64,000 bases of DNA, taken from NCBI GenBank assembly GCA_020137815.1, contig CM035353.1:248001-312000 (forward strand), read 5' to 3'. This DNA is from Hormiphora californensis. Its lineage: Eukaryota; Animalia; Ctenophora. A program made the position numbers and the translations under genes. How positions within the stretch are numbered: position 1 is the first letter of the stretch; each line of letters starts with the position of its first letter. The notes under the pieces are model-generated. The model was not told the origin of the DNA. It saw only the letters and a program-made list of their open reading frames with translations, and ran no database searches. Positions 476-61,059 of this stretch are shown one piece after another.

Positions 476-24899
<24,424 letters not shown>

Positions 24900-36729: not shown

Positions 36730-36984
36730 GAAGAGAAGTAGAGACAGAGAGCGAGAGAGAGAGAAGGAAGCGAGAGCTAGATCTTCTCCTCGAAGCTGCG
36801 GAGTCTTCGCTCCTCTACTCTCTTCCTCTCGTCTCTCTCTAAAAAGTAGGATATCGTCGGGTCTCTGCTTTCGCTCGGTCTCTCTCTGTTCTCTGCAAAC
36901 TATCTCTGATCTCATCTACCCGCCCCCCTCAAGCACACCTTTCTCGCCTCAGGAAAAATTAATGTACCCACCTTACCCCGCCCT

Positions 36985-42799: not shown

Positions 42800-43030
42800 T
42801 TTTAGCTCTACAAAACGCTTGTTCGCCCAATTCTAGAATACTGTTCAACTGTGTGGAACCCGTCATCGGTTGGTAAAATTCCCCAATTAGAGCAGGTGCA
42901 ACGGAATTTTACCACACGTATCCTGGGCTGTCAGAACTTGGACAATTATACTCCATTTATTTTCAACTGTTCCCAGAACCTGGACTACTGGCAGCGGCTA
43001 GAGGCGCTTGACCTCGAGAGGTTACTCTTT
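42800..43030 (+). pseudogene. Fragment of CR1-group LINE ORF2 C-terminus
   Basis: LEYCSTVWNPSSVGKIPQLEQVQRNFTTRILGCQNLD...LDYWQRLEAL. Confidence 0.65.
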
Positions 43031-43809
43031 CAGAAAAACTTCCTGGGTTCAAGGAAAACCTTGGTATGAAGGAATTCTATGACAGACCACCGGTGTGTGG
43101 CTATATGACGGTCCCTAATGAGTTTCGAGAGGCAGAAAGGAAGATGTACTGGTGTACTTTCTTTGTACATTTTCAAGAGCTTGGATGTCTGAGATTTTTG
43201 AAGAGTCCCATAGTGCACAGCAATACTCGAGTTTACTCCGTTTATCCAATCGATATGAAACTTAGTCAGTATGTGCATCTTGATGTCCTTTGGCCAGGGG
43301 TTCCCAGGAAACGGATTGGCAATATGAGAGTTGACTGGAGTTCTTAAAATTTCACGAAGTTTGAAGTTTTTCGTAGATTTTGGGGAAAATTGGGGGGGGA
43401 GGCCAATATCGGCCTTGAAATAAAATATGTAATAAATTATGCAGCATAAATCATTTGAATCAATTTATAATTGTGGAGTTAGTCCATACGATATAGATAT
43501 TCATCAGGGTCACTCGCAGCCGTCTTGCCCGGGCGCCGTTACGATCTGGGTGTTTGGAGGCCTGTTTACAGGTGCGCGCTGCCAAAAAAGTTGATTCACT
43601 AAAATGGCTCTAACCGCCAAACCACTCAACCGTTTTGGCTGATTCAAAGTTTATCTGGTAGGGAATGTCAAGGCCTAACCCCAACCCAAACCCCAACCCT
43701 AACCCTACTTTAGCCCTAACCCTAAAAAACCGTTTGTCAGCACTCCCAAAACACCCAGATTTTAACGCTGGCCGTCTTGCCCCTACCCCTTCCCCGAATC
43801 GGGGCCCCC

Positions 43810-44126
43810 GATGTCCCCTGATTGATTCAGTTATTGAGCGAACCATTGCAAATGATAGGCGCAGTCTGAGATATCGAACACAATCCTGTTTGGTATAGCC
43901 GGTTTTAGTGGATTTTCTGTTGGCCAGCTGTTTTAGAGTGTTCTTGAATTCTCGACCCAGTCCACCCGATGTTGACATGACAAGTGGAGTAAACACCGCC
44001 TTTTCAAGAAGAAGAACTCGTTGCAGATAAGCTTTCTTCTTCTCAGTTTCATGCTTCTCATACGTCTTCTGGATGCTCTGGTTTGCATTGGACTTTACCC
44101 TTGGATTAAATATCCTTACGTCAAAA
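43810..44126 (-). pseudogene. Restriction-like endonuclease C-terminal fragment of a CRE-type non-LTR retrotransposon
   Basis: FDVRIFNP...HETEKKKAYLQRV...FTPLVMSTSGGLG...RLRLSFAMVRS...IRG matches the pattern I recognise for the CRE-clade RLE domain. Confidence 0.7.
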
Positions 44127-44446
44127 TAATAATACAAATACAAATACAAATATACATTTATTGTCCGCTTTTCATTGTTCATATTTTAAAGAACAACACG
44201 AGTTCTGTTAGGTCTTGACTACTTGCATCACTTGGTGCGGACTTCGTCTCACTAACTCTCGTTTCAAAAGCGGTTAGTTCTATACCAAGGATTTCCAGAT
44301 GTTATTTCAAGATGATATTTTTCTGTAGGAGAACCAAGGAGCGGGAGAGAAGTCATACTCGTTGTAGCCTGCATCTCACCACACTGGCTGTACTTCTATA
44401 AGTAAAGCCCATCACACTCCACTGCACCACACCATACCGACTGTAC

Positions 44447-45116
44447 TGTAGTATCGGTGGTCAAAGGGCTGGTCGTCTAAAGCCGAGGTTCGTACCTGGT
44501 CAGACGCGATGACAGACGAGGTGAAGAGGTGTCGAGGTGAAGAGGTGAAGAGGTGTAGAGATGTAGAGATGTAGAGGTGTAGGGATGTAAATCGAGGGGA
44601 TTACCGTTGTCGGAGGTGACAGGTATTGTAGGTTGTAGTGTTGAAGGTTGTAAGGGTGGATGTAGAAGGGTTTTGTGAAGTTGTATTTATCAAAATAAAC
44701 GAACGGTTTTTGGGGTAACAAAACAAAAGGTAAAGCGTAAAACTTAGAAGTGAAGGCGGAGTTTGTTGTGATGATTAATATCTTTTCGCCTTCCCATCGT
44801 CATGCCCATTGGCTTTAGCCAATTAGGAATGCCGATGATCAAGTGCGGTTGTTCTGAGTTGTTCTGACTAGTTCTGACTAGTTCTGAGTAGTTCTGAGTT
44901 GTTCTGACTAGTTCTGACTAGTTCTGAGTAGTTCTGAGCTGTACTGACGTTATATAATAGCTGTTCTGTCTCTATGCTCTCTAGTTCTCTGTGGTTACAT
45001 AGCAACAGAGGGAGAGAGAGAGAGAGAGAGAGAGCAATAACGATTAACAGCTAGAGGTATAGAGAACTACTGATATATATCTCTCTGGGCTCTCACTATC
45101 AGCCCCATATAGTACA
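44447..45116 (-). repeat. 3' LTR (670 bp)
   Basis: Direct repeat of 59278-59946 (about 9 substitutions and 1 indel by eye). Contains a 10-bp gttctgacta tandem array at 44851-44940. Confidence 0.95.
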
Positions 45117-45133
45117 TCTCACCCCCCCCCTTT
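45117..45133 (-). other. Polypurine tract (plus-strand primer site)
   Basis: AAAGGGGGGGGGTGAGA on the - strand, directly 5' of the 3' LTR. Confidence 0.85.
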
Positions 45134-45324
45134 ATAAAGAAAGGGTGATTATCACAAACAAATCCTGTACACGTCTCACTGTGATCATAATAATCTATAG
45201 CGACAAAAGTGTTCAAAAAATTTTGATAGATAGTAAATTCTCTTTCTCGTATCTATTGTATCATACCACAAATTACTATGGGTCTTAAATCATTACCACG
45301 TATCTTTACTATCTTTTGCTTGAC

Positions 45325-45669
45325 ATGTCTCGCTTAATGCTGTCTTCCTATGAACTCAGCAAACTAGCAACATGTTTCTACCATATCTATGGTCTGGAGA
45401 GGACACACTTTATAAAGTCGATCCTCTCACCGCTACTACTCCAGCACATTGCGAGGAGCTGTATAATTAACGTCGCGGACCAAAATATACACCGAGTTAA
45501 GCAGATATTTCGTAACTTCTGGTATAGGCGGTCCTGGAATACGATCGCCCCCGACGGTTTAAACCCTCGTGGCGATCGTTATAGGTCGCTATTTAATAAC
45601 AAGGACTACTCCAGGAGACTGATTTATATGCCGGATGTTCTGGTGAACTTTCCTGCAATTCCAAATTAA
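45325..45669 (+). CDS. Putative antisense accessory ORF (114 aa), unknown function
   Basis: ATG-initiated, non-repetitive ORF next to the 3' LTR, followed by T-rich sequence. No recognisable motif. Confidence 0.35.
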   Translation: MSRLMLSSYELSKLATCFYHIYGLERTHFIKSILSPLLLQHIARSCIINVADQNIHRVKQIFRNFWYRRSWNTIAPDGLNPRGDRYRSLFNNKDYSRRLIYMPDVLVNFPAIPN

Positions 45670-46240
45670 TGGACCCCATTTTTCGAGACTAAGATTTTAT
45701 TTTGTAATTTTCTATTTATTTTTCTCTTATTGTACTCCTTTTTTCAACATTTTCTATCAGCTTCAGCGTGTTACTTTTAACGGGTACTCTACCCCCCGTT
45801 AATTACAGTTTGATGGTCTCGTATGTCCAAATGTGTCAATATTATTTATTGTTTTTGAAAAAAAAAATTTTTGTGTTTAATTTAGAGTTTTCGGGTGCCA
45901 CTGCAAGGTAAGTAACGACTCTAGTTTTCGGGTACTTACGGCACTAATTGTCTTTTCTATTTTCAGATAATTTTGTTTGGACGAGGACCATCTTACTCTC
46001 TATACTAAGGTATTTAAAATAGAAAGACTCTCTATTCGGTCGAGAGTTCTTAATTAGACTCTGGGTTCTGTTCAGAGTTCTTGCTATTTCCCCGTCTAAT
46101 GGCCGTTCAGAGTATTTGTGGAGTGCACTTGTAACCGATAATGTGGTGGTAGTTGCCGGAAACCCACAGCTGGAGCAATTAGCCAGGACCCGAAATAGCC
46201 TGGAAGTGGACCATTAAATTACGTTGGTTTATCTGAGAGC

Positions 46241-46855
46241 TTATTGGTCAGTTCTCCTGTTTAACCTCCTTCGCTGACACTGCGTAATATTTCTCTGTCT
46301 TCTGAGCTTGGTTACTGCAGTTCGTATCTCGTTAGGCAGTGTGAGGTTGATGCTCTCTTCCACTTCGGCCTTAGATTTGTCCAAGGTGGTGATATTGACA
46401 TCTCCATTCCTGACTTGGTGATGTAGTACTAGGGCTAGTTGTGACACTTTTCGCCTTGTACTGTTCCCCATTATCTGGTGTCTGGTTAACAGGCGTTTTG
46501 AGATTTCTGTGCAGGTGTGAATTGTGTCGTCCTTCTCACTCGTTGTAAGTTCACCATACACCGTGTCATTTAGCCCTTTACACCATATCTTTGTGATTTT
46601 CCTGGCGACCCTTATGTACTTTCTCACTAGATTTGCCACTGTGATTGTTTCCATCTTAGCGAGATATCTGGTGATGATTTCTGTTTTTGTCTCGCTATAC
46701 GTTGTTGTCCAGTGGGCGATGTTGAATCCGGCCTCTATCCCGCTTTCCAAAATTTCTCCGAGGATGAGATCTATGTATCCCTGGGAATTTGGCCATGTCT
46801 GGTCCAAGCAGGCCATAAGAAAGGCCGCGATATACCGGTACTTGGTGTACTCCAT
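46241..46855 (-). CDS. Orphan accessory protein of the LTR element (204 aa, Arg-rich C-terminus)
   Basis: Open ORF downstream of env2. The ATG at 46855 directly follows TTTCAG, and the protein ends KLRRQRNITQCQRRRLNRRTDQ. Confidence 0.7.
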   Translation of the reverse strand: MEYTKYRYIAAFLMACLDQTWPNSQGYIDLILGEILESGIEAGFNIAHWTTTYSETKTEIITRYLAKMETITVANLVRKYIRVARKITKIWCKGLNDTVYGELTTSEKDDTIHTCTEISKRLLTRHQIMGNSTRRKVSQLALVLHHQVRNGDVNITTLDKSKAEVEESINLTLPNEIRTAVTKLRRQRNITQCQRRRLNRRTDQ

Positions 46856-47270
46856 CTGAAATGTTTTTACTGGTTGTGTGTTGGCTTGTGTAGACGGTGC
46901 GTGTTTCAAGTCCCGACGGACGGACACGTGTTTTAAGTCTCGTCAGACGGGGTACGTAATGAAATGCCTCGCCAGGCTGATCTGTGTTTTGTTGGTCTCA
47001 GCAGACCTGTGTAGCGTTCACCGTTGATTAACCGGTATGACTGAGGTCTTATACGCCATCCCATTCATAATTACAACACGACAATTCTTAAATAATTTAC
47101 AGTTCCCATAAACTGTGACGTTTGTCGGTCTGTCTTGTCATTTTAGGTTTATTTGGGGACCTTTACTGTCGAAAAAAAAAAAATTTTATTTCCTACTATT
47201 AGTATAATTTTGTATATCTATTTTTTTTCTTTCTTTTCTTGTGACTATATTATTTTTTTTTTTTAATTAA

Positions 47271-49829
47271 TTATTTATCTAGGTTTTGAATTAGATGTGA
47301 TAACCTACTTTGTGCATTTTCTGGTGTTATTTCAGCAGTGCTCCTAGTTCTAGCTCGTAGTCCTGATGACGAGGGAGCTTCTACTAGGTTGGATATATTT
47401 GGTGTGCTGAATGTTCTTTGTTGTTCTTGCACTTCTGAATGTACTAATTCATGTAGGTCATCATTTAGTTTTTCATACATTATATTTTCGGTGAGTTGTG
47501 TATGTCGTCCCGGGGCTGGTGGTGCCCTTGTGGGTTTAGTTATTGAACTCGCGTTAAGTAATGTGGCTGGTGTGCTAAATCTTACTTCCTTTGTGAGTTC
47601 TGGCATGCTTTGGAACCTGTTTTCTCTGTGTGTTATTAGAGTCTCAGGTCTAGGTGGTAGTGGCCTTTCTCGGTGAAGCATCTCTATTTCTTCGTTGTGT
47701 TGTGTTGTGATATTTTGTCCTGATGTGGTGTTGGGTGGATGTGTTGTGTTACTATCTGTGGCTGTTCTTATTACCGATTGTACTTGTTTCTTATATTTCC
47801 TTAATCTGTAACATTGTCTGGCTACTATCAGACCGATAATTGTGAGTACGGAGAGAGCAACGGCTGCTACTCCTGCCCATTTGACGACTTCATCTTGCCA
47901 ATTACCTGGTAAGGAATGCTTTTTGAACTCGTCAAATGACTTTTTCATTTCATGTAGTGTTACTTCCTGTTTATCTGTAATTTTAACTAGTGTGCTTATG
48001 TTGCGCCTCACAATTCCGGATGCGGTACGCGCTACGAATTCTTCCCAGGGAACAATTTCCGGCATTTCCATCTCAATTTGTATAGTTGGTTCTTGGATGG
48101 ATTGCAGGACTCTGTTTCCCAGGACTACCATGGAATATTTGCTCCAGGGTAGGAATGCAGTGCCTTGTTTGCTCATCTGAACTTTATCTAGAGTGGTGAT
48201 GGTACTAGTTGCTTTCATGGCACTGATTTCGTGTTCACTATAAATTAGGACCCCTGCTGTGGTGAAGCTTGCTCTATCCACGCTCTCCACTAGCCTAATT
48301 TCGCAGTCGCCTTGTTTGTTAAGACAAGGGACTGCTACATGTTCTTTAGTAGATTTATCTGTTGATGGCCTGCTACAGATTTTTAGACTATTCGACCGTG
48401 AGTAGCAATTATCATTAATGATCTGGTAAAATTGGTCCCTAACCATATAAACTTCTTGTGGTAGATCCAGTTGGACACAGGTTCCGTTGTTCCTGAATCC
48501 AACTTGTTCCACCGCATATCTATTGTAAATTGAGGACTGTCTTAGTCCGGGTACTGTGAGCACAAAATGGAATTTGAATGAGTGGTCGGTTCTGACCATG
48601 CCAACGAGTGTTAATTTGCCTTGGGTCAGTATGCTCTCCGGCTTCTCTTGGTAAATGGTGCCAGAGAACCTACTGTCTTGTACCAACTCTCTTATGTGTT
48701 CCATGGTGAGTACTTCAGGAAGTACCCCCATGGTAAGTTCTGATTTGAGGACACCTGACAAAATGGTACGTATTTGGTTTTTCCACTTTGTCATTTGTCG
48801 CTCTCTCACAATTTGATATGCAACCGTGTCAATATCGCACTTTATTGAGTCTAGTTCTTCTTCTAGGACCTTATAAATTTCAACAATTTCTCTATTAAAT
48901 TTCACTTGCTCGTTTAAAAACTTGGTGTTTCCTTCCGCGAACTCACGAAATTGTTGATCTAGTCTCTTGACGTGTTTTCTAGTTTGGGCAGCCTCATACA
49001 TTGTAGCACCCAAACCTAGTAGAGCTGGTATTCCGACTGCTGCCATTATTACCCCCACATAACGTTTTTCTCGAGTGTTTGTGGTGGTAATATTGGTATT
49101 CCCGGTTGTATGGAGTTGGTATGCATCTACTAAATTTTTGTATTGTTTGTGGGAGTTTTCCCAAATTTCGTCGATTTCTCTGGATGTTTCATTTTTAAAG
49201 AATTCGGCCAAAGGTGTTTGTGGTAAATCTAGGTAACCATTGCACATACTGGGCAATTGTGGTTTCATACTTTCAACATCTATTGTCAGACTTTTCACGA
49301 ATCCCGGAATTTTTTGCCAAACTTGATGAAGTTTGACATTGTTTCCGTACAGAATTTTGTAACTGTCTCTTTCAGTATGGCATTTGCCTCCACCACCAAG
49401 AGCTCCTATTGGCTCAATAATTGCCAGGGAACAAAGCATGTTAAAGCATCTTTCCATGCATTTTTCAAAACTTTTGGGATTTCTCTCGTAATGTTCCATC
49501 ATGTGATGGTTTGCTACCAATTGAGGGGCTTTTTGAACTGCCGTGGTTAGCCAGCGATAGTTAGGTCGGCAATGAACGAGGTCTATGTCTCCGTCAGATT
49601 TTCTATTACATTGGAATCTCTTCAAGTCGGGTATGGGTGATGATAAAAATACTGACGCAAAAACACTTTCTGCACCAGCGGCGACATAACCTTGTGGTTT
49701 TAGGACAACTCCGATGTCCTTAAGGACTATAGGATCTAGTTGTAGCTCGAATTGAGCCTGCTGGTTCTCTGCCTCCATAAGGGCCGTGCCCAATAATGGG
49801 AGAATAAGTAGACATATCAGTCTCATCAT
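47271..49829 (-). CDS. env: Env2: class I viral fusion (F-like) glycoprotein
   Basis: 852 aa with signal peptide MMRLICLLILPLLGTA. A furin site REKR (49073-49062) is followed directly by the hydrophobic fusion peptide YVGVIMAAVGIPALLGLGA and a heptad region. It then has a Cys-rich region, a TM (WAGVAAVALSVLTIIGLIVA) and a ~180-aa tail. The layout matches paramyxo/pneumovirus F and baculovirus F/errantivirus Env. Confidence 0.85.
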   Translation of the reverse strand: MMRLICLLILPLLGTALMEAENQQAQFELQLDPIVLKDIGVVLKPQGYVAAGAESVFASVFLSSPIPDLKRFQCNRKSDGDIDLVHCRPNYRWLTTAVQKAPQLVANHHMMEHYERNPKSFEKCMERCFNMLCSLAIIEPIGALGGGGKCHTERDSYKILYGNNVKLHQVWQKIPGFVKSLTIDVESMKPQLPSMCNGYLDLPQTPLAEFFKNETSREIDEIWENSHKQYKNLVDAYQLHTTGNTNITTTNTREKRYVGVIMAAVGIPALLGLGATMYEAAQTRKHVKRLDQQFREFAEGNTKFLNEQVKFNREIVEIYKVLEEELDSIKCDIDTVAYQIVRERQMTKWKNQIRTILSGVLKSELTMGVLPEVLTMEHIRELVQDSRFSGTIYQEKPESILTQGKLTLVGMVRTDHSFKFHFVLTVPGLRQSSIYNRYAVEQVGFRNNGTCVQLDLPQEVYMVRDQFYQIINDNCYSRSNSLKICSRPSTDKSTKEHVAVPCLNKQGDCEIRLVESVDRASFTTAGVLIYSEHEISAMKATSTITTLDKVQMSKQGTAFLPWSKYSMVVLGNRVLQSIQEPTIQIEMEMPEIVPWEEFVARTASGIVRRNISTLVKITDKQEVTLHEMKKSFDEFKKHSLPGNWQDEVVKWAGVAAVALSVLTIIGLIVARQCYRLRKYKKQVQSVIRTATDSNTTHPPNTTSGQNITTQHNEEIEMLHRERPLPPRPETLITHRENRFQSMPELTKEVRFSTPATLLNASSITKPTRAPPAPGRHTQLTENIMYEKLNDDLHELVHSEVQEQQRTFSTPNISNLVEAPSSSGLRARTRSTAEITPENAQSRLSHLIQNLDK

Positions 49830-51510
49830 AGGGGTCTTCTCGGGGTACCTCTGAAAAGTTTGGACGTTGACGACGCATAAAGATTCGTTCTGTGTTTTGA
49901 GGGTTTCTAACTGTAATTTTAATGTTGCTCATTAAATTTCCAACTTTTCCAAAATTTATGTGACTTATTGCCCAAATTAGCCCACACACTGCACCAGTAC
50001 GGGTTACCCAAAGAAGTAATCCGTCTACTATATGATACCATTTTGAACTACTGAATCCTGGTAAAACGATTTCAGGAGTGTCTAAATTTTGATTTTGGTC
50101 CCGTTCTATGTCGTTGATCCTATTTTCCATGTACTCTAGTGCAGCTTTTGACGGATCTGTGTGTGATATGTCTTTATTATCGTATATGAACTCGTCAGGA
50201 AAGTGGAATAGGTCATCAAATGTGTGTGTCTTAAATATGGGTATTTCGAGAGCATTGTTTGTAACTATGACATGTGGTGTGCTCCCGGGTTGGTAATTGT
50301 ACGTGTTACCATGTAATTCTAAGAATCTATTGATTGATGCTGAACAATTGGTTCGTGTTGATTGGTGATTGATGATATTTGTTTGTGGGTCGATAAAACC
50401 ACTTCTAAAATTTTCTGCTTCATTTCCTTTGTAAACTATCGGCACATCGTAGAAGCATTCATCTGTTTGTCTAAATTCAACGTGGTTGATTGGTCTACAT
50501 GGTGTTACTTGTATTATTCCACCAGTAATGTGGTCACTCTGTGCTATTATATATGGATTATTAAGCATGTTTCTTGCGTATGCGGTAGGGTTCTTTAGAG
50601 CCAGTGCTTTGGTGACATTTATTGTTAACTGTATTGCCTCACATAAATTAGCATATTTTGTTGTTTTCTCAGTCACTACGTCAGACAGGTAATTTAATTT
50701 AGTTAAAAGTTCTTCTCTCACTGCTTCAATGGTAATGGTATTTTCATTGCTGCTAACGGACTTCGGTGTAGTACTTGGGTTACTTATTTTTATTTTGAAG
50801 CCATTAGCGTAGTAATCTTTGTCTAATTTTGGTTTTTCTTGTAGATCTGCGCTGAACCCGATTTCAGCTATAACAATGTGGTTTCCTAGAATAATTGCGG
50901 GGTAGTTGCCAACGAGTAAATGTGCCTTATTTACGTCTAGTTTTGGTTGATAGATAATTGCTTCGTTATTACTAGTTAAACAGTATCCTGTGTTATAATT
51001 TTTGGAACATTTGGTCATATCACCTAGGTTTGATATTGTATTTTCGTTATGTGTTTTTGCTACGTAGCCTTTTTTGATAATACACTCTGTGATTGTGTTT
51101 GTTTTTGTCTTCAACCATTGTGATTCGCATTTCGGTTCTACGTGTCCTAATGTATTGGTTCTTCTGCCTAATGTATCTTCGCATGTCGAGTGGGTGATGT
51201 GCTCTCTATATTTGCTTTCTGGCCAGTAAACTTTTTTATTTGATTTGGTAGTCTCTTTCGACCCGAAAAAATTGTTGGAGACCTTGCACGTCTTTTCTGT
51301 GACTCTCATGGACTTTGCATTTACTCGGTACTCTTTAATGTTTCTTTTCCACAGTGTGACATTGTAGATTGTCGGGTTTGTGTTGTCACATTTAAACGAC
51401 TGTGGTACTTTGAATAATTGTTTGGCGGTTCGGCCATCGCATATCATGGCAGTACTGCTTGCTTCGCCAATCATGACAGCAATCAACACGGCTGATACTA
51501 AGCCCTTCAT
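49720..51510 (-). CDS. env: Env1: class III-like viral glycoprotein (herpes gB/chuvirus G-like)
   Basis: 596 aa from ATG 51510, with signal peptide MKGLVSAVLIAVMIGEASS and a Cys-rich ectodomain. The segment LCE...NPTAYARNML...GGIIQVTPCRPI...RQTDECFYDVPIVY...GFIDPQTNII...RTNC resembles the gB/chuvirus glycoprotein C-terminal ectodomain pattern. A hydrophobic segment lies near the C-terminus. Confidence 0.75.
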   Translation of the reverse strand: MKGLVSAVLIAVMIGEASSTAMICDGRTAKQLFKVPQSFKCDNTNPTIYNVTLWKRNIKEYRVNAKSMRVTEKTCKVSNNFFGSKETTKSNKKVYWPESKYREHITHSTCEDTLGRRTNTLGHVEPKCESQWLKTKTNTITECIIKKGYVAKTHNENTISNLGDMTKCSKNYNTGYCLTSNNEAIIYQPKLDVNKAHLLVGNYPAIILGNHIVIAEIGFSADLQEKPKLDKDYYANGFKIKISNPSTTPKSVSSNENTITIEAVREELLTKLNYLSDVVTEKTTKYANLCEAIQLTINVTKALALKNPTAYARNMLNNPYIIAQSDHITGGIIQVTPCRPINHVEFRQTDECFYDVPIVYKGNEAENFRSGFIDPQTNIINHQSTRTNCSASINRFLELHGNTYNYQPGSTPHVIVTNNALEIPIFKTHTFDDLFHFPDEFIYDNKDISHTDPSKAALEYMENRINDIERDQNQNLDTPEIVLPGFSSSKWYHIVDGLLLWVTRTGAVCGLIWAISHINFGKVGNLMSNIKITVRNPQNTERIFMRRQRPNFSEVPREDPYDETDMSTYSPIIGHGPYGGREPAGSIRATTRSYSP

Positions 51511-52093
51511 CTGAAAAACACAATCGATTGATGACTTTGTTATTTCATGCTCAAACGAGTGATCAATTCGCCTATTCACGAAATAAAGTTTCTCGATGAC
51601 TGTGTGGTCGACCTCTCCAGATGATTTGTGTTGTGTGATATGCGGAGTTCTCTTTAGTGCGGTGTGAAGTGTACCTTATTATTCATGTCAGTGTGGTGTG
51701 ATCTATAGATTATTATTTGTGCCGTTCTACTGTGTTTTGTGTTTGTTCCTTAATTTTACTCGCGTTACCCTTATTCTACCTGTTGTTGTGTGCTTTTTAG
51801 TGACTGGTGTGTACTTAATTGGACTTCTTATTGCTAATTTTTAATGAGGAGAGTGCTCCTCTTTTGCAGCCTTCTTTAGCAAAGGGAGGTCAATTAATTT
51901 TAGAGAAAATTTACTCAGTTTATGTCTGAGTTCTGAGTGTGAGACGAATGTGCTGACAATGAAGGGGATTACTGGCCCACCTTTGCTTCTAGACAAGTTC
52001 TTGACGATTCAAATAAATCATATCTTCCCTTGTCTTATTGCTTTATTTTGTTGTTGACGGTTTATCTTTTTTTTTTTAGCAATTCTCTCTCTA

Positions 52094-52537
52094 ATGGACG
52101 CCAGACAGGAAATCATTCGGCAGGTCCTCTGGGACTCTACCTTGACCTTGGTGGTGGAACGGTTGGGTTGGCCTGTAGACGCCTCAGCCGTTACGTTTTG
52201 TATGGTTGAGGCCCTACTAGCTGGGCATGCTAGACTGGTTTGTTCCCACCGCCTTCGGGATTTGTTGGAGTGCCAGGGGGCTGGTCACCCGACCCCCTTT
52301 TGGTCCGTGATCCCTTCTAGGAACGGGGTGCCGGTGGTCTATTGCCCCTGCTCCCTGTTTAGTTGGGCGATCAACAGGCCGGTCGCCATGGAGGAGTGTC
52401 ATGGGATTCTTCCCTTGACGCACCTCCAATGCGCTATATGTGAGGACACCCCGGAAGACATACCATGGACTTCCTTCTACGCCGACTGTGTTGGGTGTTC
52501 TCTGTGCGAGCGGCCGGGGACGCCTGTTGATCGGTGA
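52094..52537 (+). CDS. Antisense Cys/His-rich protein A (147 aa)
   Basis: GC-rich ORF island in AT-rich spacer, with a poly-T/AG acceptor upstream and AATAAA at ~52592. Paralogous to 52773-53255. Confidence 0.75.
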   Translation: MDARQEIIRQVLWDSTLTLVVERLGWPVDASAVTFCMVEALLAGHARLVCSHRLRDLLECQGAGHPTPFWSVIPSRNGVPVVYCPCSLFSWAINRPVAMEECHGILPLTHLQCAICEDTPEDIPWTSFYADCVGCSLCERPGTPVDR

Positions 52538-52772
52538 TCTCATGTAGGTGGACTTTATGCTTTTATGCTCTTTGTCTTTAATTGTGGCTCTAATAAATTT
52601 TTAAATTTTTCTAGTTTTGTAACGGTCATTTGGTATTCCGCTTGGCTTCAGGGTAAGGTGTGAACCTTGCTATTTGGTTGACACATTACACCCTTTTAGT
52701 CCCCTGTATATTTTCCTATATTCAATTTGTTCTCAATTTATTTCTAACACGTTTTTACTTTTTTAGAACATT

Positions 52773-53255
52773 ATGTCTTTCTTGACTATCGTCGGTGAGC
52801 TCCGGACCGTCTGGGAATTGGACTGTCCCCACGAGCGAATGGTCGCCTGGAACATACGCTTTGACTCGGTAGTGGGGCAGTGCGGGGTTCCCATCAACCC
52901 CGTTACTGTAAGTCGCTGCGACTTACAGTTTATTTTCGACGAGCTGGCACCTCTGATATGCCATCACCGGCTCGTCGAAATACTGTCGTGCCCATTAAAT
53001 GGGCACCCTCAATTTCAGGGAGAGCACTGCCTTTGTGGCTGGTGGCGAGCGGCGGTCTGTGCTCCGGACTGGGTCAGGCCCAATTCAACAGCTCCCTGGC
53101 CCGTCCGGTTCACCCGCTGCAGCTTACACCGCTGCAGGGCGGCTCCCCTTTTGGGGCCGCTATCGATTCGGCATTGGCTTTTCGACCATGAGTTCTGTGG
53201 GGATTGTGCCAACTGCCAGCCACCAACCTCGAGGACTCCGGAGCCCGACCGATAG
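52773..53255 (+). CDS. Antisense Cys/His-rich protein B (160 aa)
   Basis: Shares CxHRLxxxLxCxxxGHP, CxC, CxxC/H and CxxCxxC motifs with protein A. Acceptor ttttttag lies 6 nt before the ATG. Confidence 0.75.
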   Translation: MSFLTIVGELRTVWELDCPHERMVAWNIRFDSVVGQCGVPINPVTVSRCDLQFIFDELAPLICHHRLVEILSCPLNGHPQFQGEHCLCGWWRAAVCAPDWVRPNSTAPWPVRFTRCSLHRCRAAPLLGPLSIRHWLFDHEFCGDCANCQPPTSRTPEPDR

Positions 53256-53451
53256 TGGGTTATTTTTTCTGAATTTTATTATGCATTTTTTCCAATTTGT
53301 TTCATGTTTTTTTTCTAACTTGTTCTTATATTCAATTTTTCAGGGAGGACGGTGAGGGGGGACGGTGAAAGGTCTGCCGAGTGTTTCCAGTAAAGGTCTG
53401 CCGAGGTAATTACTTTTTAAATCATTGTTCCGTATTACCTACTGTTGTAGC

Positions 53452-56400
53452 TTATTTTGGCCCTGACATATCGTAATCTTTTAAATACGGAGGTAATTTT
53501 TTTAGCCTGTTTGACCTACGAAGTACAGGTGGTTCTGTGGTTTGTTCTACTTGTTTATTCTTTTCTTTTTCTGATGTGGCTGTGTGAGGTGTTGTTTTCT
53601 GTGTGACGGTTTCTTTTTTGTTAATGTGTGGTGTCGAGTCGGCTAATGATTCATCATCACTTTCCGAGTGAACGTGTACGTGAATGGCTGGCCTTTCCTC
53701 AACAGTGTCCGTGACACCGTCGATAGTAAGTTTTTCTGCTAAAGCTTCGGGGACAAATTTCATAAGATCGTGGTGTACGACCTTTTGCTTTCCTGATTCT
53801 ATATGTTTGATTAGATAATTATGATCAGATATAATTTTCTCAATTATGTATAATACCTTAAATCTAGATTTGAATTTATTATTAGCCATTTCTTTTGGAG
53901 GCAATGGTACTAGTATGGCTACATGATCACCTATTTTGTACTTAGTAATTTTGGCTGAGCGGTCATAGAACTTCTTAGCTTGCACCTGTTGTGCTTTAAG
54001 ACTTTTTTGTACTTGGCCATAGACTCCTTTCATTTCCCAGTATAAATTATGTGCATAATGACATTCATCTCTGAAGAACTGGGTTGACGTTGTTTCATAA
54101 ATTAGGTCATTTGGTGCTCTAAGTTCTCTACCAAAGAAAAGGTAGTTTGGCGTGTACCCTGTCGCCTGATGTATCGTACCATTGTACGATGATATTGCTA
54201 TGGGGAAATATTTTTCCCATTGATTAGGGTTATTATGCGTCAATTTTGAGAGTATGGCTTTCAAAGTTTTATTAACCCTTTCCACTAAGTTTGTGGCTGG
54301 GTGATAAGGCGTTGTGCGAATCTTGGTGATTCCCAGCAAGCTATAAAAGTTTTGGATGAACTCGGCTCCATCAATTGATGAACCTTGATCACTGAGGACC
54401 TGTTCTGGTACTCCAAAAGGAAGTACGTGAGACATCAAGAACGCTCTGGCTAGTGTCGGGGCTTTAATATCACTAACAATTGCACCTGTGACGTACTTAG
54501 TGAACGCACAGGTACTGAGGAGTATGTGTTTAGTCGCCCCTGAATTCTTTGTTATGGGTCCCATCGTGTCTATGTAGCATCTATAGTTAGGAATATTTCG
54601 CTGTTCGTAAAGTTTCATGACCATTTTGGGTTTCTTATGAAAACCTTTGTTGTGGAAGAAACACTCTTCACACGCTTTAGTGTGTAATGTGATCTCTTCC
54701 GTCATGTTAGGCCACCAAAATTTTAACATAATGGCCCGTTTAGTTTTGAGTATGCCTGGGTGACCTGATTTGTCATGTTTCAACTCCATGATATCTTGTT
54801 TCAGGGTTTGCGGTGTACAGAGGAGCAACCGGAATTTACCGCTGGATTCGCTCATGTACTTAATGGCCACTAGTCCTTGGAGGGTAAGTTGAAGTCTTTT
54901 AAATTTGTTATAGTAAATTTTCAACTCTTTTGTGTAATTTGAGTCGGCTGGTTGTGCGGGACGTTCTTTTTGAACGAGCCATGACCTTACTTCTGACAAA
55001 GACGTATCGTTAATCTGCGCTTGGTATAGAGGTTCATGGTCATGGAACTCTAGTGATATCGGATTCTCAAACGTACCTATCTCTTCTTTTTTCTCTTTAG
55101 TAATTATTTGGATTATCTCTTCTAGATGACTACTGGGCTCATCATCAATCTTTAGATTGATGGCATCTTTAATTAGGCCAATGACTGTCTGTGGTGACTC
55201 TTCTTGCTTTTTAATTGTGTTTTCCCAATATTCCCATAAATCGCCTGATTTCTGGGGTAAATTACGGGAAAGAAAATCTGCTAATTGATTATCTTTTCCG
55301 GGTGTGTGCTCCAATACAAAGTTGTATTCTGATAACTTAATGGACCAACTGAGCAAAAGTCTACATGTGGTTTTGTTAAGATACCCGGATTGTGTGAGTG
55401 ATTTCATATCAGTGAATACTACAAATGGTTCTTGAGCACCGTATACTAGATGATCATATTTCTGTATAGCCCATAAAACAGCTCTCATTTCGAGTTTAAA
55501 ACTTGGCCATTTCTGCTCTGCCGGTGAGAGTACCCTACTCCCGTAACTAATCGGCCTAAAGAACTCTTGACCATTTTGGTCCGTGAATTTGTGAGTTATT
55601 GCACAACCTAATCCTTGAAAGCTGGCATCACACCATAAGTAAAATTTCTTTTTAACGTCAGGCATGACAAGTATGGGCATAGTGGTAAGCTTATTTTTAA
55701 TCATTTCAAAAGCGTGTTGTGCTTCGGGTGTGGCTTTAATGTTGTAACTTGTTCCGGTTAACAAGTCAGTGAGTGGTTTAATTTCGGAAGCACAATTTTG
55801 AAGTAAATTTCGGAACCAATTTATTGCCCCCAAAAAACTCATTAATTTCTTTTTAGTGGTGGGGAATGGGATTTCGCGAACTGCTCTAACTTTTTCTTTG
55901 TCCGCTTCATATCCCTCTTTACTAAGCCATGCACCTAGGAATTTAACTTTTTTCACTAGTAATGAGCATTTGGTGGGTGATATTTTCAAGCCTCCTTGCC
56001 TAATGCAGTCGAATACTTGTTTCAAGTTGATGAGCATCTGATCTGTCGAATCTGTACCTATGAGGATATCATCTAGGTACACTTGTATGTTGTTAGGCAA
56101 ATGCTGAAATATCATGGTTAATGCTTGACAGAAATAACTGGGTGCATTTTTTAGACCAAAGCCAAGGCGGTTCTGCTCGAAGAGACCTACTCCAGGGACA
56201 TTCCATGCTGTTTTGTGTTTATCAGACTCTTTTATGCGAAGGCTCATGTAACCTTTTGTGAGATCGAGGGATGAGTAGTATTCCTTCCCTCCTACATGAG
56301 CAACAACTACGTCGAGAGGCGGTATACTAGAAGTAAATGACTCTGTTTTAGCATTGAGTTGGCGATAATCGGTACATATACGTACGTCATCTGAATCTTT

Positions 56401-57516
56401 TTTCTTGACTATGACTGTGGGTGCACTATAGGCAGATTGGGATGGTTGAATGACCCCTATGTCTAGTAATGCTTGTATTTCCTTGCGAACTTGAGGTAAC
56501 AGATGTATCGGTATGCGTCTGGGAGGCAATGCTACAGGAATATCATCTTTTAAATTAATTTCTGCTTCCAAAATATTAGTGAGCCCTATGTCATATTTGT
56601 GAGATGAGAATATGTCTAAATATTCACTAACTAGTTCTTTAATTTTATTTTTAGTTTCGCTATTAAGGTGTTCGTTAGTGTCGATTTTTAGTTCTCGGAT
56701 AACTTTTGCTAACTTTGTAGTGGGTGAAACTACTTCACTAATGTTCTTAATTGCTTTTTCTACCGGTGTGAGGTATCCGAAGATTGTACCGGCTGGGAAG
56801 AAATATTCAGCCTGCTCATCAGTGTTCTCAAGTGTGATAGGTATCTCGGACTCATTAACATCTACTAAACATGAAGGTGGGTCATCTTTCTCTCTCGGCC
56901 AGAACAATGTACTTGGTGTATATACATATGTGCCACTATTTATGGGACTATCTATTGCACTAGTGTTTAGGCCAATGCACGTGACTGTGTGTGTCTTACC
57001 TATGCCAATATTAGTGTTAGCTTTTGACTTAACAAGAATTGTCTGATCTCGGGCCTTGTGAATGATTATTGGTACTTTATGGGGTCCTTTTCCAAGAGTC
57101 ATATTTGACAAATCTACTACAAGCCCGTTATCTATGAGGAAGTTAGAGCCTAAGACCAAAGGTGCTATTATCTCATCAATGATTATGAAATCAAGGTTGA
57201 ATTTTAGATTGCCTAGTTGTAATGGAACGTTTTTGATGGTCCCTAAAACTCTAAGATTGTGACCCGTCGCACCGATTAATTTGTACTTCGTTGCTTCTAT
57301 ACTACTGGTAGGTATTTGTAATTTATCGAGCATCGATTTAGACATGCAATTAAGCACTGCGCCGCTATCTATTAGTAATTTCGCGTCTTGACTATTGATT
57401 TTCCCTGCCGCGAATAGTGAATTAGTGTGCTTGTCTGCTATTGTTAAAATGGGCGACGCGGGTACAAAGTCACGTGCGGTAGCCTCGGTCGAGGGCCGAG
57501 GCACACTTAGTTTAAA
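53452..57516 (-). CDS. pol: Pol polyprotein (protease, RT, RNase H, integrase), expressed by -1 frameshift
   Basis: Protease LLIDSGA; RT LDLTKGY, FGLKNAP and YLDD; RNase H WCDAS. Integrase has HHCC (H..SGHPG...CEEC) and a D-D-E core (YIDTMGP, SDQGS, VERVN). No stop codons. Confidence 0.97.
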   Translation of the reverse strand, partial: FKLSVPRPSTEATARDFVPASPILTIADKHTNSLFAAGKINSQDAKLLIDSGAVLNCMSKSMLDKLQIPTSSIEATKYKLIGATGHNLRVLGTIKNVPLQLGNLKFNLDFIIIDEIIAPLVLGSNFLIDNGLVVDLSNMTLGKGPHKVPIIIHKARDQTILVKSKANTNIGIGKTHTVTCIGLNTSAIDSPINSGTYVYTPSTLFWPREKDDPPSCLVDVNESEIPITLENTDEQAEYFFPAGTIFGYLTPVEKAIKNISEVVSPTTKLAKVIRELKIDTNEHLNSETKNKIKELVSEYLDIFSSHKYDIGLTNILEAEINLKDDIPVALPPRRIPIHLLPQVRKEIQALLDIGVIQPSQSAYSAPTVIVKKKDSDDVRICTDYRQLNAKTESFTSSIPPLDVVVAHVGGKEYYSSLDLTKGYMSLRIKESDKHKTAWNVPGVGLFEQNRLGFGLKNAPSYFCQALTMIFQHLPNNIQVYLDDILIGTDSTDQMLINLKQVFDCIRQGGLKISPTKCSLLVKKVKFLGAWLSKEGYEADKEKVRAVREIPFPTTKKKLMSFLGAINWFRNLLQNCASEIKPLTDLLTGTSYNIKATPEAQHAFEMIKNKLTTMPILVMPDVKKKFYLWCDASFQGLGCAITHKFTDQNGQEFFRPISYGSRVLSPAEQKWPSFKLEMRAVLWAIQKYDHLVYGAQEPFVVFTDMKSLTQSGYLNKTTCRLLLSWSIKLSEYNFVLEHTPGKDNQLADFLSRNLPQKSGDLWEYWENTIKKQEESPQTVIGLIKDAINLKIDDEPSSHLEEIIQIITKEKKEEIGTFENPISLEFHDHEPLYQAQINDTSLSEVRSWLVQKERPAQPADSNYTKELKIYYNKFKRLQLTLQGLVAIKYMSESSGKFRLLLCTPQTLKQDIMELKHDKSGHPGILKTKRAIMLKFWWPNMTEEITLHTKACEECFFHNKGFHKKPKMVMKLYEQRNIPNYRCYIDTMGPITKNSGATKHILLSTCAFTKYVTGAIVSDIKAPTLARAFLMSHVLPFGVPEQVLSDQGSSIDGAEFIQNFYSLLGITKIRTTPYHPATNLVERVNKTLKAILSKLTHNNPNQWEKYFPIAISSYNGTIHQATGYTPNYLFFGRELRAPNDLIYETTSTQFFRDECHYAHNLYWEMKGVYGQVQKSLKAQQVQAKKFYDRSAKITKYKIGDHVAILVPLPPKEMANNKFKSRFKVLYIIEKIISDHNYLIKHIESGKQKVVHHDLMKFVPEALAEKLTIDGVTDTVEERPAIHVHVHSESDDESLADSTPHINKKETVTQKTTPHTATSEKEKNKQVEQTTEPPVLRRSNRLKKLPPYLKDYDMSGPK
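57482..57516 (-). promoter_or_regulatory. -1 programmed ribosomal frameshift signal
   Basis: T TTA AAC (57516-57510) in the gag frame just before the TAA stop, then a 7-nt spacer and a GCCTCGG/CCGAGGC hairpin. Pol is in the -1 frame. Confidence 0.85.
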
Positions 57517-59015
57517 TCTTGATCCTTGAAGATATTCTCCACCAGAGCCATGTTGTATGTCTTTTCTTGGTCCGGGAAGCCGCTGTTTCCTGGGCCGTCG
57601 TCAATAGCCAGCTGTGCCATGGGTGCCGTTATGGCGTGTTGCATCATATTGATGGGGCGTTGCTGTTGTTGCTGTTGTTGTTGTTGGGCCGCATTGTTGG
57701 GTGCTCGCCAATTACCGGGTGGTGCAGTAGTAGTCTGGTACTGGTTCGGGTTTTGTTTCCACTGGTTTTGAGTGTTCTGGTAATTAGGCTGGTAATTGGG
57801 ACGGTAATTGGGGCGGTAGTTGGGGCGGTAGTTGTCCCTATTGTTGGGACGGTAGTTGTCCCGATTGTTGGGTCGGTAGTTGGGGCGGTTGTCGTTCCTT
57901 CCCCGGTTACCATTGTAGTTGTTTCTCCCCTGGTTATTGTTGTTATTGCCACGGTTGTTGTTGTTATTCCAGCCTCTGCTATTTCCTCCTCTGCTGTTGT
58001 TTCCCTGCTGGTACTGCCTGACCCTTCTCTCTGTTGATCGGCAATCACTGGTCCAGTGCCACCCTCCGCATTTTCGACATGCTGATGGTGGTTGGGTATC
58101 TCGTTGCTGTCGAGTTGGGCACTCCCTGGCGAAGTGTCCATCCTTTCCACATGAGTAGCATTGATTAGATGGCGGTCTTGCAATGACCTTCTCTTTCCCC
58201 GTCAAGTGTGAAACTGGAGCATCTTGGATAGCTAGTACCGGTGGAGGTTGTTCAACTTCCACTGTTGCCGGTATCGGGAGTGTGACGATTCCCTTGTGAG
58301 AGTCGTCATTCTGGGAGCGTAGAAGTAGAGCCTCCTTCAAAGCCAGTTCCTTCTCCATGGTGATTTCAGCAAGTTGATGTTCGGTGATGTCCTTCAAACA
58401 TGAAACTTCAGCGGCTAGTCGCGCGTCACTCAACCCGCTCAAAAAAGCATCTCGCAACATCTTCTGTGTGAACTTCTTCTCCATCGTGCGATCGGCGCGG
58501 GACAGTTCGGGCGTGTCAACGCTGTCAAAATATTTGTCTACTATTTTGACTAATCGTTCGAAAAAATCGAGCGCAGTTTCATCCCGCCCCTGTGTAGCTT
58601 TACGTAACTCTACTTTAGCTGACATTTTTTGTGTTTTTGGAGTAAGAGTTTTAATTATTGTTGGTTTGAGATCTGACCAATCTGCTTTCTGGTCTTCTGT
58701 CAAATCAAGCGCTGCTAGTTTATCTCGGCAGCTCTCAGGCAGGTAAGTGATGAAATTGCTGTACGCCTTTTCATCACTTAGTGAGATGAGTGTTCTATAA
58801 TCATCAAATGTTTTAATGAATTTAGACACACTTTTTCCCAAAACATAGTTAGTCGGCTGTTTCGCTGCTGCGTAACTTGCCGTTAACTCCCTACGATAAT
58901 CGCGGAACTTGGTTTTGACCTGTTCCTCCGAAAATGTAGCATGATGGCTTGTTGCACTAGGGTCTGTTACCCCGGGCAAAATGCCATTTTTATTATCTTT
59001 ACTTTCGTCCCCCAT
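57507..59015 (-). CDS. gag: Gag (capsid, two zinc knuckles, N/Q/R-rich C-terminus)
   Basis: First ATG at 59015 (the frame is open from 59255). Has a major-homology-like segment ATQGRDETALDFFERL and knuckles CYSCGKDGHFAREC and CRKCGGWHWTSDC. Confidence 0.92.
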   Translation of the reverse strand: MGDESKDNKNGILPGVTDPSATSHHATFSEEQVKTKFRDYRRELTASYAAAKQPTNYVLGKSVSKFIKTFDDYRTLISLSDEKAYSNFITYLPESCRDKLAALDLTEDQKADWSDLKPTIIKTLTPKTQKMSAKVELRKATQGRDETALDFFERLVKIVDKYFDSVDTPELSRADRTMEKKFTQKMLRDAFLSGLSDARLAAEVSCLKDITEHQLAEITMEKELALKEALLLRSQNDDSHKGIVTLPIPATVEVEQPPPVLAIQDAPVSHLTGKEKVIARPPSNQCYSCGKDGHFARECPTRQQRDTQPPSACRKCGGWHWTSDCRSTERRVRQYQQGNNSRGGNSRGWNNNNNRGNNNNNQGRNNYNGNRGRNDNRPNYRPNNRDNYRPNNRDNYRPNYRPNYRPNYQPNYQNTQNQWKQNPNQYQTTTAPPGNWRAPNNAAQQQQQQQQQRPINMMQHAITAPMAQLAIDDGPGNSGFPDQEKTYNMALVENIFKDQDLN

Positions 59016-59258
59016 TAGTAAAATTAAATCGTGATAAACTGTTTTATTTACTGTAACTGTGAGTGGGCGATTATTTTGTAACGGTGTTGAAAATTGATCT
59101 GATTCTAATTCTAAACTTAAATTTAGGCTATTTGAGCTAATCGAGAATTCAGAGTCTTCAGAAAGTCTTGTCTGAGATAAATCTGAGTTTTCAGAAAGTC
59201 TTGTCTGATTTTCAAGTTCACGTGGGTCTGAACTTGCTATATTGGCCACACAAAACTA

Positions 59259-59273
59259 CAAGTCACAGCACCA
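59259..59273 (-). other. Primer binding site, tRNA-His-like
   Basis: TGGTGCTGTGACTTG lies 4 nt inside the 5' LTR end. It is complementary to the typical eukaryotic tRNA-His 3' end (TGGTGCCGTGACTCG) with two G:U pairs. Confidence 0.75.
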
Positions 59274-59277
59274 ATTA

Positions 59278-59946
59278 TGTAGTATCGGTGGTCAAAGGGC
59301 TGGTCGTCTAAAGCCGAGGTTCGTACCTGGTCAGACGCGGTGACAGACGAGGTGAAGAGGTGTCGAGGTGAAGAGGTGAAGAGGTGTAGAGATGTAGAGA
59401 TGTAGAGGTGTAGGGGTGTAGATCGAGGGGATTACCGTTGTCGGAGGTGACAGGTATTGTAGGTTGTAGTGTTGAAGGTTGTAAGGGTGGATGTAGAAGG
59501 TTTTTGTGAAGTTGTGTTTATCAAAGTAAACGAACGGTTTTGGGGTAACAAAACAAAAGGTAAATTGTAAAACTTAGAAGTGAAGGCGGAGTTTGTTGTG
59601 ATGATTAATATCTTTTCGCCTTCCCATCGTCATGCCTATTGGCTTTAGCCAATTAGGAATGCCGATGATCAAGTGCGGTTGTTCTGAGTTGTTCTGACTA
59701 GTTCTGACTAGTTCTGAGTAGTTCTGAGTTGTTCTGACTAGTTCTGACTAGTTCTGAGTAGTTCTGAGCTGTACTGACGTTATATAATAGCTGTTCTGTC
59801 TCTATGCTCTCTAGTTCTCTGTGGTTACATAGCAACAGAGGGAGAGAGAGAGAGAGAGAGAGAGCAATAACGATTAACAGCTAGAGGTATAGAGAACTAC
59901 TGATATATATCTCTCTGGGCTCTCACTATCAGCCCCATATAGTACA
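59278..59946 (-). repeat. 5' LTR (669 bp)
   Basis: Direct repeat of 44447-45116. Confidence 0.95.
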
Positions 59947-61059
59947 AAACCCGAGTAAATATCCAATTGTGGAGATGAGGAGTCTGGGAGAGAGGTCCTC
60001 CATTGTCTATGCCTTTGTAATGAATATCTCTGCGATTCTTGGTGGTGCTATTTCCGGGGTAACAGTACCAGAGAGGTCAGAAGGGCCACCCTGATCGTTA
60101 CTACTCTTGGTACTTGGATGTTGATGACTGTACTTCTCATTGTACCCCGTCTTGTGAAGTGAGGATGTGGTCCTGATATATGTACTGACACTGACACATT
60201 TTAGTGTGCAATCATCATTGCCATCATTAATGATTTTTCTTTATTTTAGCATACATTACAAGTAAAGAAGAATCATAATTCGGACTCGAATATTTAAGTT
60301 AACCTACGCCCTCCATAGGAAGATATTCTTCTTAATTGTTGACTTCCGAACATTCATTACAAATTTTTATGACACTGTCGTTTATCTTGACTCATATTAG
60401 AATGTGTGATAACAGCCTATGGTATGGTCTTTTTTTGACGAGCAGATGTGGTATGTGTTCATGAATCTCTGATCAGAGGTACGTCATTGGCTCATTGGCG
60501 AATAATTGGAAATCTCATTTCCTTCGATTGCAAATTCTCTTCCAGACATGTCTCGCTCAGTCATGTCTTTCTCTCACATCTTTCTCTCTTGCTCTCTCTC
60601 GCTCTCTCTCCTTCTATCTCTCTATATCTCTCTCTGTCTCTGTCTCTCTCTCTATCGTTAAATCATTGTCCTCACTATTTCACTATAATATCCAATTAAA
60701 TAGTCAATCACTGTGAGGTAAAAACTGAGACACATCTAGACTTTTTCCAAAAAGAAACAAAACACAGTTCAGCTAAAAATAGACACTATCGCTTTTCCAC
60801 CGCCCCCAACATTCTCTACTCTGGGTTAGGAAGAACAGTCCCTCCCAATAAGGTTAAAGAGTTCGATCCGTGACAAGCGGTGCAACACATTGCCTCTCTT
60901 TCCCTCTCTCCTTGCCTGCAGATTACATACATATAATAACAACGACACGGTGATCAATCAGGCGGGGCCTAAAAAAGACAGTCAATACTAGATCTCTCAT
61001 CAGTTGATTCACATTTGGTGATCCTTCTCTTGCAAGTACGTCGACATCTTAACAGAGAA

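Follow-up and report, generated by a model that had tools for sequence, protein, structure and literature searches.

The window analysed here, a 64,000-nucleotide stretch of the ctenophore Hormiphora californensis (GCA_020137815.1, contig CM035353.1, positions 248,001 to 312,000), contains a long terminal repeat (LTR) retroelement of ~15.5 kb (44447..59946, read on the minus strand) that carries two intact envelope (env) genes of unrelated class, a predicted class I F-type gene (env2) and a class III gB-type gene (env1). Judging from their sequences, both are likely kept as working entry proteins, a reading to which we give a probability of about 55%. That the two env genes encode unrelated proteins of different fusogen classes had been missed by the initial annotation of this stretch, as had the absence of a target-site duplication (TSD).

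Two envelope genes of different fusogen class

The class III (gB/G-type) gene env1 (49720..51510, minus strand; 596 aa) has a splice acceptor directly before its ATG. Its product matches the Monjiviricetes fusion glycoprotein family (PF24664; E 7.1e-18, score 64.3, cut-off 27), and its domain I-II shares 142 of 198 residues (~72%, counted by eye) with ENV_HSV of the ctenophore element Pbac_errantivirus_5 (PMC13524379 Supplementary file 2), an Env marked in that supplement as AlphaFold-modelled. This identity points to a ctenophore host, probably pleurobrachiid, and partial matches in seawater libraries are consistent with a marine one. The two best PDB matches of an env1 profile were herpesvirus gB/ORF8 chains, both weak (E 0.11-0.13); a single-sequence search of the PDB with env1 found nothing. 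On account of the PF24664 match, the identity to a published gB-type Env and the gB/ORF8 profile matches, env1 is by sequence homology a class III gB-type fusogen, for which fusion activity is predicted. Its homologs are 43% identical, and one of them (P0008) also matches herpes gB (PF00606, E 7e-4). The protein has an N-terminal hydrophobic stretch (1.78), and its best C-terminal 19-mer (1.57) lies at the same place as in both homologs (1.68 and 1.57).

The class I gene env2 (47271..49829, minus strand; 852 aa) overlaps the end of env1 by 110 nt and has an acceptor 21 nt before its ATG. It encodes a signal peptide (residues 1-19), the furin site REKR (253-256), a fusion peptide (258-276), a heptad repeat (281-345) and a transmembrane (TM) segment (652-670). 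Six homologs were found, in addition to the env of L001 (SPKZ01017220.1), which was the only close relative among five loci recovered by a pol scan of metagenome contigs. All nine aligned members of the env2 family have R-x-K/R-R or KKR ahead of a hydrophobic peptide, and 12 Cys columns are conserved across them. The periodicity of the first heptad repeat (HR1) was matched by none of 2000 shuffles, and that of the HR2 segment, which is modelled as a helix, was not significant (p 0.29).

When the AlphaFold model of env2 was compared with 48,161 PDB representatives, ranks 1-13 were all paramyxo- or pneumovirus F proteins (Z 10.0 to 6.4), including those of measles virus (9coh; Z 10.0, rmsd 9.1 over 191), PIV5 (2b9b; Z 9.9), RSV (8wsq; Z 9.7) and GhV (8tvb; Z 9.6, rmsd 4.2 over 158). 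Foamy virus Env came next at rank 14 (Z 5.7), ahead of unrelated helical chains, which scored 5.5 or less. No sequence match to a fusion protein was found in Pfam, or in the PDB by single-sequence or profile search, and the env2 profile matched only PAN-type domains in the PDB (E 0.55-0.72). Because of the furin site and fusion peptide, the conserved Cys, the heptad periodicity, the TM segment and the fold matches to F proteins, env2 is assigned to the class I F-type fusogens with a modelled paramyxovirus-F-like fold and predicted fusion activity.

A PAN/apple-like insert is present in the F2 part of the env2 family, before the furin site (env2 residues ~85-150); PF00024 scores above cut-off in the homologs P0005 and P0006 and more weakly in P0001 and the env of L001. 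This insert could be a built-in receptor-binding module.

Support for the arrangement in public sequencing runs

Contigs of four of the 11 listed public runs were placed on window positions 43000-60500. X4 derives from sample S1, which may be the source of the window itself, and X5 from sample S2 of another study (2025); the evidence is that of the listed pieces, beside which there are 15,510 further ones, and summed contig depth is not taken as copy number. X4 and X5 each cover 30 of 30 bins. In X4, record 1 bridges ORF204 and env2, record 4 bridges env2, env1 and CysB (49751-52387) and record 5 bridges CysA and pol, and the pieces over the internal region carry 0-6 substitutions each and up to 6 gaps. 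The env2-env1 junction is also bridged in the second sample (X5 record 11, 48474-51504), and the env1-CysB junction is bridged in both. No listed piece bridges 56836-56902, 57511-57526 or either LTR edge. Taken together, these overlapping contigs leave little room for doubt that the dual-env gene set is real.

Among 138 differences between copies, 40 were shown, and 19 of these lie in open reading frames (ORFs), with 9 synonymous, 10 non-synonymous and none creating a stop. That the family is inserted at several sites follows from further LTR-flank junctions, of which X4 shows two left and one right, X5 one left, and X6 one on each side. The DNA of both samples also includes internally deleted variants, lacking 52458-52682 and 56075-56796, that reach high contig depth in X5 and are possibly non-autonomous derivatives.

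In the DNA runs X4, X5 and X6 alike, the right flank is joined at ~59969/59970 to other DNA that the window lacks, and on this contig evidence the surroundings of the window copy are rearranged or mis-joined. Dating by LTR divergence is weakened because of this, and the internal gene set is unaffected.

Identity and structure of the element

The element is an env-carrying Ty3/gypsy (Metaviridae-type) retroelement, which is a known kind, and on its sequence it is an 'errantivirus' in the operational sense of Chary & Hayashi (eLife 2026, PMC13524379). It comprises two direct LTRs with a primer-binding site (PBS) and a polypurine tract (PPT), uninterrupted gag and pol genes, the latter encoding protease, reverse transcriptase (RT), RNase H and integrase, and an intact env-like fusogen gene, in this case of both types. 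The 5' LTR (59278..59946, minus strand; 669 bp, TG...CA ends) and the 3' LTR (44447..45116, minus strand; 670 bp, one base longer than first assumed) both read TGTAGTA...TAGTACA at their ends on the plus strand. They are identical at 660 of 670 positions (98.5%), which bears out an earlier estimate by eye, and differ by 7 transitions, 2 transversions and 1 indel. The tRNA-His-like PBS (59262..59273, minus strand) lies 4 nt past the LTR and reads TGGTGCTGTGAC, differing at one position, possibly a G:U pair, from the His_GUG 12-mer given in Supplementary file 1 of PMC13524379, and the G-rich PPT (45117..45133, minus strand) adjoins the 3' LTR.

The gag gene (57507..59015, minus strand; 502 aa) encodes a CCHC zinc knuckle (PF00098, E 3.2e-6) and a tail rich in N, Q and R, and its product is 30% identical to the Gag of L001 (E 5e-46). 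The pol frame (53452..57600, minus strand; 1382 codons) has a LIDSGA protease motif upstream of Pfam matches, in order, to PF00078, PF17919/PF17917, PF17921, PF00665 and PF22938. It overlaps gag in the -1 frame, and the sole slippery-type heptamer of the overlap, T TTA AAC (57510..57516, minus strand), stands directly before the gag stop; the 12 bases GATTTAAACTAA end gag both here and in L001. The heptamer is followed by a hairpin with a 7-bp stem (80-nt segment, z -1.65; 12 of 200 shuffles as stable). From the sequence we infer that Gag-Pol is made by -1 frameshifting at this predicted site.

In a quick tree built from RT-RNase H of the window Pol and its best 45 of 121 matched homologs, which is unrooted and includes no named GyDB clade, the element falls in a five-member clade with P0030, L001, P0023 and P0024 (SH-aLRT 100), on a long stem and with mostly unnamed relatives. 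Most of the 120 listed Pol homologs are without a name; the named matches include K02A2.6-like gypsy-type polyproteins and none that is called retroviral. Alignments of pol, env1 and env2 against viral contigs, and of env2 also against metagenome contigs, gave no relatives.

These results modify the initial annotation, which had described 7-8 intact ORFs on both strands, about twice the usual gypsy size, a complex-retrovirus-like organisation, recent activity and a possibly undescribed Metaviridae group. Seven genes are free of stops (gag, pol, CysA, CysB, env1, env2 and ORF204), and the eighth frame is probably no gene. The size of 15.5 kb holds and is less exceptional than supposed, published ctenophore elements with called LTRs measuring ~12.1-13.3 kb. 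The accessory genes make the complex retroviruses a fair analogy, without the element being filed in Retroviridae, and env1 and env2 match the gB and F families and folds rather than retroviral SU/TM. Recent activity is consistent with the intact ORFs, the 1.5% LTR divergence and the other LTR-flank junctions in two samples, and is called into question by the missing TSD and by the differences of both LTRs from a public-run LTR contig. Of the proposed new group, what stands is a Ty3/gypsy identity, a complex set of genes and an organisation not described before, but the env1 relative Pbac_errantivirus_5 is already published (PMC13524379); on sequence evidence the lineage is partly catalogued, solely as a one-env element.

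Accessory genes and splice acceptors

The 1.9-kb gap between pol and env1 holds two antisense orphan genes on the plus strand, CysA (52773..53255; 160 aa with 13 Cys, 8 His and 7 Trp; 59% GC) and CysB (52094..52537; 147 aa with 11 Cys; 58% GC), against 32-37% GC in the spacers. Two ATG-initiated ORFs of at least 147 aa on one strand of this gap occurred in none of 2000 base shuffles. The two are paralogs (34% over 58 aa, E 9e-10) with Cys, His and Trp positions in common. At the three codon positions in turn, the identity between them is 0.49, 0.49 and 0.38, and different codons encode 21 of the 39 residues that they share, suggesting long-standing selection on the protein. No match was found in Pfam, PHROGs or, for CysA only, the ESM Atlas, nor did a two-sequence profile, which is weak for remote homologs, find one among 1.84 billion representatives. 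The third accessory gene, ORF204 (46241..46855, minus strand), is a sense orphan without TM segment and with a basic C-terminus, for which no informative match was obtained (Pfam; ESM Atlas neighbours uninformative; one PHROG at E 0.012).

All the genes downstream of pol follow closely on TTTYAG, the ordinary 3' splice consensus, the distance from its end to the ATG being 0 nt in env1, 21 in env2, 0 in ORF204, 6 in CysA and 14 in CysB. Of 230 internal sense-strand ATGs, 4 follow TTTYAG within 24 nt, namely those of env1 and ORF204 and the tandem pair of env2. Among antisense ATGs the figure is 10 of 245, the two longest ORFs among them being CysA and CysB; the exact form of the motif was set after the sites were seen. 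No such acceptor lies near the ATG of gag.

Trans-splicing of a host spliced leader (SL) is judged somewhat likelier, from these sequence features, than cis-splicing from a weak or LTR donor, because there is no clear donor in the 5' leader (from 59926, within the LTR, to 56999 the sense strand has no listed donor-like site), because SL use is widespread in ctenophores (at least 56% of Iso-Seq reads in Hormiphora; PMC8527503) and because the gypsy element Cer1 is known to make an SL1 trans-spliced mRNA (PMC3315495). The 3' end of the Hormiphora SL is not present in the window, in keeping with a leader that has its gene at another place.

A further strong antisense acceptor occurs at 53343 (plus strand), with donor-like sites at 53406 and 53493, and other antisense acceptors at 45766, 45966, 47146 and 51879; these sites possibly mark small antisense exons. 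An open frame of 114 aa (45325..45669, plus strand) was considered as an eighth gene and rejected, having no splice acceptor and no Pfam match, and antisense ORFs within gag and pol were treated as by-products.

Origin and maintenance of the two envelope genes

In the proposed scheme, full-length RNA would be primed by tRNA-His, use the PPT and be translated into Gag and, by the -1 frameshift at T TTA AAC, into Gag-Pol. Env1, Env2 and the ORF204 product would come from separate subgenomic mRNAs formed at their own acceptors, most likely by host SL trans-splicing, and CysA and CysB would be made likewise from an antisense transcript. Particles would bear one or both fusogens and have two ways into cells, for instance to reach different cell types or to pass from soma into germline. 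The weakest step concerns CysA and CysB, which are proposed as metal-binding regulators of RNA fate or host silencing; by analogy with the Cys-rich CERV of Cer1 such a role is conceivable and is put forward with reserve.

The F-type gene would be the resident env of the lineage, the gB gene and the Cys pair having been inserted between pol and F by recombination with another element. L001, a 10,237-bp contig whose 99-nt terminal overlap identifies it as a one-LTR circle, has the order LTR, gag, pol, F-type env and one further ORF, and is 47% identical to the element in Pol and 23% in the F env (E 1e-39), with no match to env1, CysA, CysB or ORF204. The further ORF of L001 is Pro/Gln-rich and begins at an in-frame ATG behind an acceptor at 3127. 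The Pol homolog P0161 (57% identical) and the F homolog P0004 both have a longest contig of 18,459 bp and are probably on one contig. Because L001 has the F env only, and because P0161 and P0004 seem to share a contig, the F gene probably accompanies Pol in this lineage, and the gain of the gB gene and Cys pair probably came later. This history is drawn from one fully seen relative and an unrooted tree, and loss of the gB gene and Cys pair in L001 may be the alternative.

Several observations weigh against this reading. No second element with both env genes was found, L001 having F only, and the longest-contig sizes of env1 homologs and env2 homologs have no value in common among the matches listed. 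Among the listed pieces none bridges 52387-52857, between CysB and CysA. The copy differences listed for each env gene (3 synonymous and 3 non-synonymous) are too few to show selection, and a 1-nt gap at 48916 in the env2 contig of S2 (X5) indicates at least one copy there with a broken F gene. The TM segment of env1 is moderately hydrophobic (1.57), and the model of env2 has a mean pLDDT of 42.5 (low confidence). Contigs of X7, a seawater RNA library, reach 22 of 30 bins, both env genes among them, but cannot show transcription. A TSD, which is expected of any LTR insertion as the mark of one made by integrase, is absent at the window copy, where the left flank ends in GTAC and the right flank starts with AAAC. 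The X4 contig consensus beside another LTR copy ends in the same four letters that open the window's right flank, which hints at a 4-bp TSD with later rearrangement. A TSD is no part of the definition of 'errantivirus' in the available text of PMC13524379.

The most probable alternative is an envelope replacement caught part-way, or a division of labour, in which the gained gB fuses membranes and the old F is decaying or serves attachment only. It has a precedent in group I alphabaculoviruses, where GP64 was gained and a remnant F kept (PMC4741009), and it would fit both the S2 copy with the gap in env2 and a receptor-binding role of the PAN/apple-like insert. However, the window env2 retains its furin site, fusion peptide, all 12 family Cys columns, TM segment and own acceptor, and the insert is also present in the F-only L001 and is thus older than the gain of gB, which leaves this alternative unlikely.

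A less probable explanation still is that the gB gene and Cys pair form a one-off passenger cassette, either a recent recombinant or a nested fragment, that is dispensable for replication. The cassette is missing from L001, the closest fully seen relative; the DNA variant that skips 52458-52682 occurs in both samples, with summed contig depth raised around 52344-52927, indicating that part of this stretch is also present elsewhere; and the GC content of CysA and CysB departs from that of the spacers. Yet no internal LTR or terminal repeat surrounds the cassette, which is present in both samples with DNA runs, env1 pieces being found in two seawater libraries as well. CysA, CysB and env1 are all open and each has an acceptor, a gypsy element of Pleurobrachia has the 72%-identical gB as its annotated env, and the codon differences between CysA and CysB argue for long protein-level selection.

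An assembly chimera of two elements, to which the missing TSD, the flanks from unrelated sequences, the joining of the right flank to sequence outside the window in contigs of both samples and the lack of a listed piece spanning the whole element might point, is very improbable, as overlapping short-read contigs with few differences cover the internal region, a contig of the independent sample S2 spans the env1/env2 junction and a mis-join at the LTR would alter the flanks but not the internal gene set.

The reading that both env genes are kept as working entry proteins can be extended, tentatively and with less confidence than it has for this copy, to a ctenophore Ty3/gypsy lineage that routinely carries two working fusogens of different class and a both-strand multi-gene programme expressed through host SL trans-splicing. 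If this were true, the evenly mixed labels of the ctenophore elements in RT clade T of PMC13524379 (three ENV_F and three ENV_HSV) and their size of 12-13 kb would in part reflect the annotation of only one of two env genes, and two-env intermediates would be the route by which retroelements switch envelope class.

Genomic surroundings

The window is eukaryotic, microsatellite-rich DNA. The left flank of the element (43531-44446) is very high-copy in public contigs and contains telomere-type ACCCTA repeats (43674-43707) and a truncated ORF without Pfam match, which we take to resemble the C-terminus of a restriction-like-endonuclease non-LTR element; the apparent 3' end of a second element lies at ~44130. 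A 241-codon frame at 41086-41811 has no Pfam match at 1e-3 and resembles the C-terminal part of a non-LTR (RTE-like) reverse transcriptase. Farther away are a TMEM131-like gene identified by Pfam (28110-32483), whose single open frame of 1457 codons with an acceptor-like site shortly before the ATG would fit an intronless trans-spliced host gene, and two open frames of rhodopsin-family G protein-coupled receptors (PF00001; 2212-3276 and 14230-15743). Tandem arrays occupy 7638-11140 (32-bp units), 17433-19970 (70/77-bp) and 36970-38080 (29-bp), the first of which flips orientation near 9133-9237 and forms a long inverted repeat.

Comparison with known systems

F-type and gB-type env genes were reported in Ty3/gypsy elements across animals, ctenophores included, by Chary & Hayashi, whose table gives one env type per element (1291 ENV_F and 221 ENV_HSV, 1512 in all). 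Their nine ctenophore 'ancient errantiviruses', six of them in RT clade T, share with the present element the gag-pol-env Ty3/gypsy layout, the occurrence of both env types and, at 12-13 kb, a large size. Pbac_errantivirus_5, whose Env is of the C1c cysteine type, differs in being listed with one env; its contig measures 11,313 bp, and a second env could have been cut off. The available main text of PMC13524379 makes no mention of antisense or accessory genes, of two envs or of a second env. The survey searched regions of at most 10 kb, with a pol-env gap of at most 1 kb, or, for ctenophores, no more than 5 kb past pol, and its LTR pairs were <14 kb apart and >99% identical; a 15.5-kb element would be missed or shortened because of these size limits, which reveals a blind spot of size-limited surveys. 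The survey reads the F and gB types as ancient, rarely exchanged and one per element, and an intact two-env element is the intermediate that a switch from one to the other needs.

L001 resembles the element in its RT clade, its frameshift motif and a downstream ORF whose in-frame ATG is preceded by an acceptor. It differs in its size (10.1 kb), in having an F env but neither gB gene nor Cys pair, and in a downstream ORF unmatched to ORF204.

In the plant LTR elements Grande, RIRE2 and Retand, additional ORFs, in part antisense, lie past pol and before the 3' LTR (PMC7264820), and bdelloid LTR elements have varied ORF3 genes (PMC5408684); two fusogens of different class are not reported in the abstracts of either study. 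No report of a retrotransposon with both env classes was found in open-access PMC and bioRxiv. The combination of class I and class III env genes with acceptor-led accessory genes on both strands thus appears new, not having been found in print, with published entries compared through their env labels and one Env stretch.

Host trans-splicing, as proposed here, is used by the Caenorhabditis elegans gypsy element Cer1 (PMC3315495), whose Cys-rich accessory protein CERV is needed for RNA export (PMC10309623). CERV differs in being a 517-aa product of a spliced mRNA, and the parallel with CysA and CysB, an orphan and possibly metal-binding protein family, is one of analogy only. The arrangement suggests that retroelements in trans-splicing animals can gain genes cheaply, by placing an acceptor before an ATG.

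The closest functional parallel, by analogy, would be the GP64-plus-F state of group I alphabaculoviruses, in which a class III gene (GP64) and a class I gene (F, Ac23) likewise occur in one genome, the class III gene having arrived later (PMC4741009). These are large DNA viruses in which F is no substitute for lost gp64; env2, by contrast, retains both furin site and fusion peptide. The Hormiphora element would offer a retroelement parallel to the GP64/F history of baculoviruses and a natural setting in which to test two fusogen classes next to each other within a single genome.

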